The notes below the pieces were generated by a model. It was given only the letters and a program-made list of their open reading frames with translations, did no database searches and had not been told where the DNA came from. 64,000 nucleotides of DNA. It comes from Eledone cirrhosa (lineage: Eukaryota). Where the stretch lies: contig OZ024758.1 of NCBI GenBank assembly GCA_964016885.1, positions 4,464,001-4,528,000 of the forward strand, in the 5' to 3' direction. A program made the position numbers and the translations under genes. Shown piece by piece: positions 3,825 through 64,000 of this stretch; position 1 is the first letter of the stretch, and each line of letters opens with the position of its first letter.

Positions 3825-3945
3825 AACGAAGGAAATGTGGTACGGAACCAGATGGACCATAACGCACCAAAGTACTCAATACTTAGATAGAATTAGCCGT
3901 CGAAACGGCTTCAGCTCTGCCGTCGGGGTCCTACTCGTTCCTATA
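3825..3945. mobile_element. Rearranged Penelope-like pLTR fragment, family H-A (3' half of a hammerhead)
   Basis: 3825-3884 is the reverse complement of ~37113-37173, and 3885-3942 is a direct copy of ~37041-37095. It is flanked by (TA)n on both sides. Confidence 0.6.
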
Positions 3946-4158
3946 TATATATATATATATCACTCTGTAAATATGTCTCCTTCTCTGTCTAAGATTTCTT
4001 CTCGCATAATTAGTTCAGAGGCTTAGTTTCAATAAAGTCTATGGGTAGTTAGAGAGAATCGGATCTACAGGGATATGGCGACTACACGATCTCAGGCTGA
4101 CAGTTACACCTATACAGAGACACTCTTTCCTTTTCTCTTTCATACAAACACACGTTAT

Positions 4159-4348
4159 GGAGGGATTGGCAGTATCGGTAGAGGGTCGGACGCCGTGCTT
4201 TGACGTATGGAGTTACGGCCCTTGCCATTCTGAGATCAAATCCCGCCGAGGTTAAACTTTGCCTTTCATCCTTACGGGGTTGATAAAATAAAGTACCAGT
4301 AATGTACTGGGTATTTGCTGGCCTTGTGCCAAACGTAGAAACAATTAT
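4159..4348 (+). mobile_element. tRNA-derived SINE, family S1 (full length)
   Basis: A box TGGCAGTATCGG, B box GATCAAATCC, core GCCTTTCATCCTTACGGGG..GATAAAATAAAGTACCAG, tail AGAAACAATTAT. Many copies occur in the window. Confidence 0.85.
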
Positions 4349-4349
4349 G

Positions 4350-5010
4350 TAGGTATGTATATATATATACACACACATATATATATATATATATACACAC
4401 ACACACATATATATATATATATATACACACACACACATATATATATATAAATATACACACACACATATATATATATAAATATACACACACACACATATAT
4501 ATATATAAATATACACACACACACACATATATATATATATAGACACACATATATATATATATACACACACACACACACATATATACACACATATATATAT
4601 ATATACACACATATATATATATATATACACACACACACATATATATATACACACACACACATATATATATATATACACACACACATATATATATATACAC
4701 ACACACATATATATACACACATATATATATATATATACACACATATATATATATATACACACACACACACACATATATATATATATGTGTGTGTAGATAG
4801 ATATAAATGTAGATAGATACATAGATGTGTATGTTTGTGTGTGCGTGCGGTTGTTTGTGTGATTGTGTTTGTGTGATTGTGTTTGTGTATGTATCTGTAT
4901 GTATCTCTTTGTCTGCTTGAGTGTGAATGTGTTAGTATGAATGTGTTAGTGTGAATGTGTGTATGTGTGTATGTGTGCCTGTGTGGGAGTAGATGTATGT
5001 AAGTGTGTGT
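4350..5010. repeat. (TA)n(CA)n and (TG)n microsatellite array
   Basis: Direct reading of the sequence. Confidence 0.95.
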
Positions 5011-59325: not shown

Positions 59326-59328
59326 TGT

Positions 59329-59758
59329 ATACGAGAGGATGCTGAAATGATCCTGGCTTTGCGTAAAATGATACAGGATGATCAGTTAAATATGATTATA
59401 CTCATCATATTCCCCTCTGAGATTAATAGTTATTCAAACCAGTCAACTCTCCCCATCCGACGGGGAAATCTCCCACCCACTTTGGGCTGGTTGAGAGATG
59501 TCTTCTCTTGTGAAAATGGGTATAACTTTCATTATGTAAAATCTCCCCATTTTGCCTCATTATTCCCAGCTTTGGGGCAGTTTTTTTTTCATGGTACTCC
59601 CCGTTTGGATTTTTAGAGGTTCGCAGGTCTGCTTTTTGCAGTGGCCCTTCAGTTTTTCCAAACCCTGTAAAAAGAACTCGGAAGTTTATGAGTTTATGCC
59701 TCAGGCCAAGACTCTATAGCAGCAATCAAGCCAGAAACGTTGCAGCACACCCTCCTAT
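59329..59758 (-). mobile_element. Mariner-derived MITE (same family as 55238) with a nested MITE M1 at 59435-59631
   Basis: TIR TACGAGAGGATGCTGAAA..; CCTTCAGTTTTTC matches the reverse complement of 55330-55345. M1 ends are CAAACCAGTCAAC / GTTCGCAGGTCTG. Confidence 0.65.
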
Positions 59759-62151
59759 ATATATATATATTCTCTAATTTATTTATTCTTAGCACGCTTA
59801 CATAATCATAGTTTAGAGACAATAACTCATAGATTACACCACGTCATCTATCTACCCAGCCAACGTTTTAACTACCCATCCAGACACCCATTCATTCATA
59901 CACTACTTTCTGCACATATCTCCTTACAAAAATATCTTAGTTGCTTAGACACAGAGTTAATACGTCAAGCGGATTTTTCATAATCGCATTATTTAACGTA
60001 TTTCAACCTCCTGGCTGATTATTCATTTTCGGTCGTTCGTTTATTCCGGGATATCAATATCTAGTTGTTGCTCGGTGACAGAGAATATTCCTATTTTAAA
60101 CGCCATCTTAGTTTAACGACGATACTACATTAGTAGAAATAGACCACCCCTATCTTGTCAGTTTTGAATCTACCAGCAAGAAAAAGAAGAAGAAGAAGGA
60201 GGAGAAGGAGAAGATAGAAGAAGAAGAAGAACAACAACAAGGATAATAAGAATGGAAAGAGCCGACTTCTCGAGTTTTCCATAGTTTTGCAATGTAATAT
60301 TGTGTTACATGTCTTAATTAAAATGGATTAATATGATGTCATATGTTAGCAGCCATTTTGTATTTTATTATTGTTTTGTTTTTCTTTCGAAATGTTGATA
60401 ACGATGGCGCTGGTGACTGGATTATATGGTTTGACATTTATTCTGCAGCATCAACAGTCATTGATAATGAGTATATGTTTGTGGGGTCCGTAACAACATG
60501 TCACATCTCCCATAAATAATGCGGCATTAAAGAAGGATTTCTAATTTAAAACCCGAGTGTTTTATGACGTACATGCACACACACACACACATATATATAT
60601 ATATATATATATATATATATATATATATATATATATATATATATATATATAAAGTTGTAGTTCATGTCTGTTTGTTCACGAACTCCTCCTATGGCTTTGG
60701 AGATAAACCTCCATATCCATATATATTCAGACCCAGCTAAAATAAATATAGAGTTTTGGGTTTCAGTGAGCGTTAGATATGTGGAAGATGATTTTAGATA
60801 AAACTTAAGGATGCACCATTTTTGGATAATAACTGGACATGTAATCATTGTTGTTTAATTCTCATTGAAAGATTTGAAGAATATCTTACTAGAACCGAGG
60901 AATGAACGGAGAAAGGAATGAGAGAAATTGATTTCAAACAAGAACTGTAGAAAAGAGTAAGAGAATAAAGAAAATTGGATTAAAATGAAAATTTTAAAAA
61001 TACTGAATTGAAAATGAAATTTAAATGGATATGGTAATTAATGTCAACATACTGAGGACGTTTTTAACATTATTTTGTCAGCCAAATGTTAATAGCAGAA
61101 TGAAAAACTAAATCAAACTGTAAAGTTAAAATGAAAACAAATTTAAAACAAAAACGGTATGATGCAATCTCACAGAATAGTCAGGATGGAAAGAGAAATG
61201 TTGCGTTTTAAAAAACATACCAAGAAAGAATGAATGGCTCCTTAGACAAATAAAGAAGTAGTAATAAAAAATACAATTTCGGTTTGTAATATTAACAGAG
61301 TTAAACGAAGCGTGATAAGTGGCGCTGAGACGTAAAAATGGCCACATTAAAGAATGTGGAAAAGATGTCAGATGATAATAAAATGAAGGAAGGCGAGAAA
61401 TGAAGATGTCCATATTGGCTTTTGATGTTACCTATTGATGTTACATATCTTGTTTTTATTATTGTAGGTTTTTTCTTTTTTTCTTTTTTTACAGATTTGT
61501 ATGTTTTCTTTTCTGATACTATATGAAAACTGGAAAATTGTTGCTTCTCAAGTAATGACTGTTTCAACTTACCTACAAATAACGTTCAAATCAACTGCAT
61601 TATTACATTCAGAAAATAGCGTCAAATTGATTAGTGTTCATTGATGTTGCTTTTATTCGTTTTGTAAAATGTCACGCCTCTTCACAGTTGTGATACTAAT
61701 GAGAAGTCAGGCACAACTGAGTGTAGACTAAACTCTATTATACTGTAATTGTTTGTAGTGTAATGTTTTTAGTATTTTATATTAACTAACGTATATTGTA
61801 TTTTGAAGTAATACAGCCAAAAGCAAATATAGGAAAATGTAGGTTCTTTCAGAATATGATATTGACAATATCGAAATACTTTTTACTGGATATATAGACA
61901 TTTAAATCTATTAATGTAAGCAAACCGTAACAGATGCAGTTTGACAAATGATATAATCTTGGCCACCACGATAATGAGAATTGCCAGTCATGCAATTGTA
62001 GGTAACGTATATATACACAATTCAGTCATTTGTTTAAAGGTGAATAGATCTTCTAGTACCAGCCATATATGATGGTTTGTATGCATGAAAGGTTTCCCTC
62101 GTCATTATACTAAATGATGAGATCTCAGCAACATAATCTCCGAAAACATTT

Positions 62152-62201
62152 ATTATTTCTGAAGAGGTCACAGAATGTGTGACGAAAGAACTTTGACAAT
62201 A
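62152..62201 (+). ncRNA. Hammerhead motif, family H-C (stem I decayed)
   Basis: CUGAAGA-G-GUCACA(GAAUG)UGUGAC-GAA-AGAACU-U-UGACAAU. Downstream ATGACCCTCCCAAAGTATA matches 30129-30147. Confidence 0.6.
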
Positions 62202-64000
62202 TATAAACAACCATTTGGTTGTGGAACCAACCAACCAACCGGAAATTTATAAATTCCTAAATTTATAAATTTATTATAATAAATTAAAATGAAAGCAACT
62301 GGTGCGTGTGTTTCTTATTGGCAACATGACCCTCCCAAAGTATAACAGTTTATTATTTCATTATAGGAATTCTGCAAATTCGTTGCCCTCGTAACTCTTG
62401 TGAAGATCGAGTATATTTACTTGGAACTATACCCTTTAAATTCGTAAAATATAAAGGAAATTTAATGTTTTAGAATTCATAAAAATTATAATCAAATTGA
62501 ATCAAAACAAATTTTTAAAAAATATGCATGTTCGATCAACATGTACTACTTATTAATGTGAAAATGGTTTAGTTATTTTTTTTATTTTTACGTTTGTGGT
62601 TGAACTGTCAAATTACTGAGAATGTGAGGTAATGGAAGGATTAAAATCGATGTTAAATTGCAACAAATCGAATCAGATCCTGTAAAGAATAATCTATCTC
62701 ACCAACATTGATATTATGATACAAAGAAATAATAATGGCTATGACCTTGCTATATTCATAAAGGGTTTAGCCAGTATCAAAACCACATTTTTACTAAAAT
62801 CTGTAATTATGAAGGAAATTACAAGCGGTTCTTGAGCGTGAGAGTTGAATAATCTTTACACAAGACATTTCCTCTTCAAATTAATTCCAAGTGTTACTGG
62901 TCTATCATATATCGCATAACAAACGGTGTAGAAGCAGAGATAGGCTTGTGTTGTCATTTATTCCAAATCATAAATCATAAACGTTTGCTATAGTTGAATA
63001 TATAACTACATTGTTACAGTTACAATCCCATCTAATCCTCACAGAACGGACAAAACATTGCAATACTTCCTAACAAATTCCATTGATCTTACAATGCTGC
63101 AGCTGTGTAGACTAGTGAGCTGTTCCACGAGAAACTACTTACTCACACCTAGAAGGACATGATAATGAGTGTTAGCTCTCTTGTCCCTACTATTCACATG
63201 GATAACATTGATTAAATAAAGATGTTTTATCAATGATTTAGATGAGAAATAGCTCATCTTGAAGGCACCACTTGCATTCTTTACTCCAGGTTAGCAATAG
63301 GAAATCTTATTGGTTTTTCAATAGGGTGATCTCGAAATCTGCAATACAGCGGACACAGAGAATCATATATATCTATTTATCTAAATGTCAATCCCTTTCG
63401 CTTTCTCTCTCACTATATATATATATATATATATATATATATATATATATATATATATATATATATATATAATTGGTGTGGGATGTTTAAAGCGTCCGTA
63501 AGCCGTTTGAGCACTTCTTGTGTGAGATATATATATATATATATATATAAATGAAGCAACGAAGTAAAGGACATATATATATATATATATATATATATAT
63601 ATATATATATATATATATATACAGTATGAGTAGATAGATAGATAGATGTAACAGAGTGATAGACAGATATGTTGATACATAGACAGAGATGTAGGTAGTT
63701 AGTCAGACAAACAGATCTGTATATATATATATATATAGAGAGAGAGAGGGGGGAGGGAGGAAGATAGAGAGAGGGGGAAGAGAGAGAGAGAGGAGGAGGG
63801 AAGAGAGGGAGAGAAGAGAAGGAACTTGTAACCAATTCTAACCAATGAGTCTATAAAACTATGAAACACTAAGAGCCATCGCATGACACGGAAGTCCAAT
63901 GAACTATTGGAAGTAGGAATTAAAATTAGATTATAAAGGAAGAACAGCAGTAGTAGTAGTAGTAGTTGTTTTAGTTATAGTGGCAGTAGTAGTAGTTTGT

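Follow-up and report, generated by a model that had tools for sequence, protein, structure and literature searches.

A 64,000-nt stretch of the Eledone cirrhosa genome (contig OZ024758.1, positions 4,464,001 to 4,528,000, our G000:C19:4464001-4528000; hereafter the window) is dotted with short copies of sequence that carry hammerhead ribozyme motifs, often arranged as inverted repeats, raising the question of what kind of element left them in this 3.0-Gb, microsatellite-rich animal genome. An initial annotation of the window read them as Penelope-like elements (PLEs) or retrozyme-like elements that lack open reading frames (ORFs), with inverted 5' copies and (TA)n targets. The attribution to PLE hammerheads, the inverted copies, and the (TA)n targets hold up. 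The ORF-less, retrozyme-like character does not, since longer copies elsewhere in the genome reach reverse transcriptase (RT) and GIY-YIG coding sequence in seven of the eight families found here. We consider it probable that these stubs are insertions of PLE pseudo-long terminal repeats (pLTRs) and that the short copies are mostly run-off cDNAs, begun at internal sites of an uncut RNA and finished at its capped 5' end.

Hammerhead motifs and their families

The seven core motifs in the initial annotation are present at the loci claimed (9456 minus, 29935 plus, 36728 minus, 42367 minus, 46682 minus, 46839 plus, and 62159 plus), as are its palindromic stems III AUGAUCAU and AUAUAUAU and the AATAAA directly after two of the ribozymes. 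They had been counted as seven full cores; four were accepted by our descriptor as intact folds. Three cores are damaged in stem I or II, and one has a changed core base. In the 62159 copy the 5' strand of stem I is gone, stem I is mismatched in the 29935 core, one stem II pair is broken in the 9456 core, and C replaces U at core position 4 of the 36728 core, as in 6 of 50 family A copies. The density of motifs exceeds that of shuffled sequence throughout. A strict type-I descriptor found 3 cores in the window against shuffle means of 0.005-0.025 (maximum 2; 3 x 200 shuffles), and a relaxed one found 4 against 0.30 (maximum 2; 60 shuffles). The corresponding figures for the relaxed one are 10 and 0.75 for 200 kb of neighboring DNA and 11 and 0.85 for a blindly picked 200 kb.

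Seven 3' halves had also been proposed, and six of them belong to repeated ribozyme families (3890, 37040, and 38505 to B, 42555 and 45160 to G, and 51370 to F). The seventh, a ACAUAUGU palindrome at 47450, has no core upstream and no second copy genome-wide, and it was rejected as a ribozyme half. Chance matching in AT-rich, microsatellite-rich DNA holds for this one motif, and a blank Rfam result would suit the same explanation: a search of the window returned nothing at gathering score, and the 150 of 250 matches listed by E-value included microsatellite-driven ones only. For every other motif chance is already refuted by the shuffle controls, by thousands of copies per family where reversed-pattern controls returned 0-4 matches, and by compensatory changes in the stems.

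With 47450 excluded, the copies sort into eight families at 12 sites (the family listing shows 13 matches, one of them the tail of a D2 element matched by D). Most sites are head to head, as annotated: eight of the 12, the other four being single arms. The population is also as dense as had been proposed, with 12 sites in 64 kb, 56 matches in the neighboring 200 kb, and 30 in the blind 200 kb (about one per 7 kb), D and D2 possibly being counted twice. Genome-wide there are at least 41,939 matches to family B, 29,474 to F, 13,330 to A including a sister family, 8,976 to G, 5,469 to C, and 1,779 to D2; all are exact-pattern counts and lower bounds.

Judged by their conserved core, stems I to III, and covariation, the motifs are minimal type-I hammerheads, for which self-cleavage is predicted. 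Stems are paired in nearly all copies of each family. In the family F alignment 91% of cells are paired and two stem I pairs have changed on both sides, a covariation count reached by 1 of 500 shuffles with relatedness not controlled; D and D2 differ by two compensatory pairs in stem II. The complete B ribozyme combines a U3-A8 core with a stem III of 6 bp and a loop II about 38 nt long; its minimum free energy (MFE) structure is a three-way junction no more stable than shuffles; MFE folds of several short natural copies were likewise no better than shuffles. Early searches for a complete B ribozyme had assumed a C3-G8 core and a short loop II, and their matches were junction artefacts. Family G has A at core position 4 in 43 of 43 copies fitting a template that itself required A. 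A U.U at 10.1/11.1 is common to C, F, and G, a C.C mismatch at the fourth stem II pair to A, C, and E, and an extra base after A9 to D and D2. Published PLE hammerheads share the short stem I, long stem II, and palindromic stem III, the extra base after A9, and the U3-A8 variant, known from Schistosoma PLEs (PMC4209133); most of those motifs also lie on truncated copies, with opposite-strand pairs 100-700 bp apart. Differing from them are the 6-bp stem III and the loop II of B with its promoter-like motifs, the A at position 4 in G, the U.U of C, F, and G, and the C.C of A, C, and E, any of which may be already known.

Further hammerhead families, including a second U3-A8 type with an ACCGGT palindrome, turned up in blind samples (L320, L344, L355, L342, L353, L354, and L340).

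Coding parents

Coding sequence is reached upstream of the ribozyme in five Hydra-type families (A, B, E, F, and G) and two Neptune-type families (D and D2), which bears out the linkage to PLE ORFs that the initial annotation had suggested checking. The parent of family A, traced through L049 and then L075, has an intact 891-aa ORF of 2.7 kb with the ribozyme 1.2 kb beyond it. That of family B (L127) is a direct tandem with a period of 3,118 bp and an intact 718-aa ORF, and that of family F (L268) has an intact 713-aa ORF flanked by two ribozymes. Family G is represented by ORF pieces in two partial copies (L284 and L287) and family E by an ORF piece in a single copy (L290). In the window itself no PLE ORF was found, and tblastn with two parent proteins matched translated pLTR only.

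The five families share a single ORF with RT and C-terminal GIY-YIG, recognized by motifs and alignment and, for G and E, from partial copies, as well as a hammerhead near the 3' end and insertion at (TA)n. The ORFs of A, B, and F contain the RW[KR], DKT, CxCx5C, CxxC, and CxH motifs. By alignment the first is RWK in A and RWR in B, F, and G, and DKT is present in A, B, F, and G, this region not having been recovered for E; the CxCx5C linker and the CxxC/CxH around a conserved E and N occur in all five. These motifs define the Hydra clade (PMC8557442, section 11), and on the strength of them we assign A, B, E, F, and G to Hydra-clade PLEs. The C-terminal endonuclease-bearing (EN+) elements of that clade, including Hydra-1_Obim of Octopus bimaculoides (Craig et al. 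2021, PMC8557442), share the single ORF, its domains and motifs, the hammerhead near the 3' end, the (TA)n target, the inverted 5' copy, and the one-sided tail. There are differences as well. No family here matches, by eye, the N-terminus of Hydra-1_Obim printed in that paper's supplement. The clade's "<3 kb" size, a descriptive and not a strict trait, does not hold for units such as that of B, with its 3,118-bp period, or the longer A with its linker inserts. Finally, tens of thousands of short copies with fixed ends are not among the features in that paper's description of the clade. The five families are 42-54% identical to each other, and a homologue search with the F protein returned 1,453 relatives, the best about 40-54% identical and nearly all unnamed. 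In L075 and other family A ORFs, two long low-complexity inserts lie in frame in the linker joining RT to endonuclease, resembling inserts in rotifer PLEs (PMC3846280).

D and D2 have a different RT, weakly matched by Pfam RVT_1 upstream of a C-x4-C-x2-C linker that is followed by two GIY-YIG-like strands (L292, L308, and L316). All D and D2 copies fetched were broken or truncated, and the linker motif, which has the Neptune form CX2-5CxxC, marks them as Neptune-type PLEs. Family C is a 2,683-bp unit, 88-94% conserved end to end, that forms direct tandems. No PLE coding trace was found in this unit, and tblastn of five parent pieces on 11 C loci matched unrelated neighbors only, giving no autonomous partner. 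Family C is thus a true non-autonomous element, the sole ORF-less family of the eight. An ORF in L375 was rejected as its partner because TA tracts separate it from C.

Could the short copies still be ORF-less, retrozyme-like elements that spread by themselves through ribozyme-cut circular RNA? Short copies outnumber long ones about tenfold in family B, with 41,939 matches against about 3,500 copies with a whole core (3,353 + 139; different patterns), family C has no ORF and occurs in direct tandems, and a PLE origin has been proposed for animal retrozymes (bioRxiv 10.64898/2026.07.22.740005). Metazoan non-LTR retrozymes (Cervera and De la Pena 2020, PMC7229834) are likewise short, non-coding, and AT-rich with type-I hammerheads. 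Those, however, form head-to-tail arrays of 150-450 bp units with canonical ribozymes, whereas these are head-to-head stubs, seven of the eight families having coding parents. None of the window's copies is a tandem retrozyme, short head-to-tail arrays were not found among them, and the direct tandems we saw have periods of 2,683 and 3,118 bp. The ends of the copies, described below, speak further against spread as circular RNA, which we regard as quite improbable. The nearest thing to a retrozyme-like array is a cluster of degenerate F-like direct repeats, a few hundred bases apart, at G000:C1:1092650-1115087. One F fragment with an identical flank recurs at many places on C1 (L234, L239-L241, and L245), probably inside a larger repeat.

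Ends and pairing of the arms

Like parentage, the end positions and the pairing of arms can be observed directly in the genomic copies. Among the first 100 of the 41,939 family B matches, long upstream sequence was seen by eye in 14 and was absent from 86. Most begin, also by eye, at or just inside one base in loop II. All 27 arms met by chance were short, and so were 16 of 16 in 400 kb of DNA that had not been selected. The 5' half of the core is missing from short B copies, and the whole ribozyme is found in long copies only. Long B copies carry a box that we take to be TATA-like 29 nt before a T(T/C)AGT site that we take to be initiator-like, and the A of this site is the 5' end. We had supposed that a GAAAT subfamily of B lacked long parents, which 139 matches refute. 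As possible origins of that family's 5' end, HDV, twister, and hairpin ribozymes were set aside by eye.

Other families end at places of their own. In family F, the 5' edge of stem I is where 37 of 46 arms begin (-26..-14 relative to the GAAA box); in several subfamilies, the long copies conserve TATAAATA about 30 nt upstream of the 5' end with a differing spacer, and the full-length copy (L268) starts within 4 nt of the common F 5' end. Family G piles up, as F does, at the base of stem I. In family A, 17 of 28 true arms (six sister-family rows having been excluded from 34) begin within -161..-146, about 120 nt upstream of the ribozyme. The family D pile-up lies about 60 nt upstream of the ribozyme, near a motif, presumably YY1-like, that D shares with D2. 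The 5' ends are not random truncations. Starts within 2 nt of the cleavage site are rare (3 of 99 tail-bearing arms), and the pile-ups in B, F, A, and D indicate that the ends track promoter-like motifs and not the ribozyme. The initial annotation's copies "cut off at or near the ribozyme" are thus a real pattern that follows these motifs instead of the cleavage site. Both the ends off the cleavage site and the missing 5' half of the B core count against the circular RNA explanation.

By eye, the first 100 rows show G before the B start (+1) in 86 cases and A in 14, at a position occupied by T or C in long copies. A script run on 30 fetched loci counted 27 G and 5 A, and 15 G to 4 A remained once partner-templated cases were removed (p = 0.01). 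An extra G in 14 of 14 B loci that had been picked for their likeness to the query was left unused. In L1 and SVA an untemplated G is read as a copy of the cap (PMC4859970). One could instead attribute the 5' ends to RNA processing, by hammerhead cleavage or a splice acceptor, and not to transcription start. The B pile-up does adjoin a pyrimidine-rich AG like a 3' splice site, and the Drosophila Penelope intron ends at helix I (PMC4209133). Yet that A and G are retained in short B copies, a constant upstream exon was not seen in B, and the cleavage site about 40 nt downstream has no pile-up, making processing very unlikely as the source of the ends.

At the other end, the copies of each family finish at one of two fixed 3' positions, at TA tracts, and the enrichment of (TA)n at junctions that had been proposed is evident, a TA tract being present at 142 of 223 3' ends against a background of 15.7%. 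One long and one short 3' end were paired in 40 of 41 usable family B pairs (51 found) and in 13 of 13 family A pairs, a pairing that fits two internal start sites (PMC11167929). Arms mismatch less within pairs than between them (4.7% vs 10.1% in B; 2.9% vs 5.8% in A), and variants are common to both arms of a pair. The architecture matches the tail and inverted pLTR published for PLEs (PMC8557442). Length of the 5' end is coupled as well: 62 of the first 100 long B rows were in long/long head-to-head pairs, and among 113 arms lacking the long-copy signature, some selected and some met by chance, none had a long antisense partner. Fold-back junctions vary between copies, so the fold-back itself is not the copied unit, a further point against retrozyme-like spread. 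Rare head-to-head pairs join arms from two PLE families (L080, L094, L097, L088, L082, and L083, around 1500), which requires two RNA templates in one insertion; in the first four of these the junction between the two families has no TA tract.

These pairs bear on another explanation: RT would stall at structured RNA, which would fix the 5' ends, and the cDNA would prime itself to give the inverted arm, a route put forward for rotifer PLEs (PMC3846280). The pile-ups of F and G at the base of stem I and the private variants common to both arms would fit. However, B stops in the middle of loop II, and A and D stop about 120 nt and 60 nt upstream of the ribozyme. Stalling leaves the TATA spacing and the extra G unexplained, self-priming does not account for the pairing of a long with a short 3' end in 53 of 54 pairs, and the rare two-family pairs without a TA tract need two templates. 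We therefore judge it unlikely.

Within the window, family B forms three fold-backs. That at 3826..3944 has a minus arm (3826-3884) of tail only and a plus arm (3889-3944) consisting of the hammerhead 3' half with the short 3' end. The plus arm of the second (36976..37174) begins at 37036, the fixed family +1 in loop II, preceded by a G not present in long copies, and long and short 3' ends are paired. In the third (38425..38542), both arms are truncated. The family A fold-back (36626..36945) has core 36728 and the short 3' end in its minus arm, and a plus arm that begins within the core and bears the tail. Family F has a minus-strand single arm between TA tracts (9401..9460), starting a few bases before core 9456 at the fixed family 5' end, and a fold-back (51346..51484) with both arms 5'-truncated and the tail on the plus arm. 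Family E is a minus-strand single arm with an intact fold (42268..42447, core 42367). Family C forms a fold-back with two complete cores, 46682 minus and 46839 plus (46574..47090). An old D2 fold-back (29701..30150) carries core 29935 in its plus arm, and D is a plus-strand single arm that begins at its core (62159..62353).

Family G has a plus-strand arm (42552..42684) of ribozyme 3' half and tail, and a fold-back (44818..45218) with a mutated core in the minus arm. Between a TA tract and the G arm lie 78 nt (42474-42551) with no match in 398 loci, which may be filler or captured foreign RNA. The tail of that minus arm is split by an insertion at 44926-45056 (plus strand), the tail of a ninth ribozyme-like family whose copies (L196, L150, and L323) have GAAAC, a GC palindrome, and GUC upstream of AATAAA.

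A model of insertion and its wider setting

From these patterns we infer a promoter, a cap, a dimer, and an order of steps. A pLTR promoter would set transcription going at the hammerhead or within it (the first base of stem I for F and G, loop II for B), or about 120 nt upstream of it in A. Both start sites for RT would occur two times in this RNA, once close to the 5' end and once at the 3' end. After a dimeric RT-endonuclease had cut a TA tract on both strands, two cDNAs would be primed, one per strand, from the pair of sites within a single pLTR copy. If that copy is the 5' one, or belongs to a short RNA from a solo pLTR, the result would be two short arms ending at the cap; if it is the 3' one, two long arms would result. 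Repair would then join the two cDNA ends head to head via filler or microhomology. Insertion would need no ribozyme cleavage. In vitro, a lizard PLE initiates at two internal sites, extends both strands, and can dispense with cleavage (PMC11167929). With a little less than even confidence, we suggest that this amounts to a PLE version of retrovirus-like strong-stop, in which cap-proximal priming yields tens of thousands of SINE-sized inserts, both arms coming from one pLTR copy of one uncut RNA. Family B, having moved its promoter into loop II, would then possess a promoter-gated split ribozyme, since an mRNA starting there would begin with half a hammerhead unable to cut alone while its 3' copy would be complete.

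Several observations weigh against this model or the assignments beneath it. Start site and cap are read from DNA. In the chance-met B arms, which include a few misclassed long copies, +1 is preceded by T in 15, G in 4, A in 3, and C in 3, the extra G being a minority. Distributions of 5' ends are broader in G, D, D2, E, and C, no clear TATA box is seen in A and G, and in one B subfamily short copies are numerous despite a degenerate TATA. Many of the B pairs lie at loci selected by pattern or likeness, and shared arm variants could also reflect fold-back synthesis or later conversion. Pfam gave no GIY-YIG match on the parent proteins, and the clade calls are based on motifs.

The model has close precedents. 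PAc, a Poseidon element of Anolis (Frangieh et al. 2024, PMC11167929), shares two RT start sites that define the tail, an AT-rich target, extension of both strands, and an uncleaved RNA template; that work concerns 3' ends in vitro, whereas here the 5' ends, arm coupling, and cap-like G come from genomic copies. Penelope pLTRs (Schostak et al. 2008, PMC2377424; Arkhipova et al. 2013, PMC3846280) share transcription start in the pLTR and solo and inverted pLTRs, and TATA and initiator-like motifs have been noted in those of rotifers. There, solo pLTRs are ascribed to recombination or deletion and inversions to self-priming, whereas the copies here look like primary insertions ending at the start site.

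The window also holds unrelated repeats. An unbroken 1,064-aa ORF (14098-17292, minus strand) was rejected as a PLE, as it is a long interspersed nuclear element (LINE) with AP (apurinic/apyrimidinic) endonuclease, RVT_1, and C-terminal C2H2 fingers, and is probably young. A short ORF remnant (18904-19302, minus strand) has no Pfam match and ends, by eye, like the C-terminus of the LINE ORF in L257. A 97-bp near-perfect fold-back (37196-37292) adjoins a TA tract and has 38 matches elsewhere, with no hammerhead seen in it, and a 47/48-bp tandem repeat (12795-13043) occurs at other loci as longer arrays (L152).

PLE hammerheads, Hydra elements, fold-backs, tails, and pLTR promoters have already been published; the families here are new. 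Our search of literature available outside subscription returned no reading of short PLE copies as cap-ended run-off products and no promoter in loop II. How PLEs build direct and inverted terminal repeats and what the hammerhead does are posed as open questions in the sources above (PMC2377424, PMC3846280, and PMC11167929). For annotation, stubs of this kind, roughly one per 5-8 kb here, could readily be misfiled as short interspersed nuclear elements (SINEs), miniature inverted-repeat transposable elements (MITEs), or retrozymes. Because young elements with intact ORFs coexist with tens of thousands of copies that predict the start site to the base, the model is directly testable.

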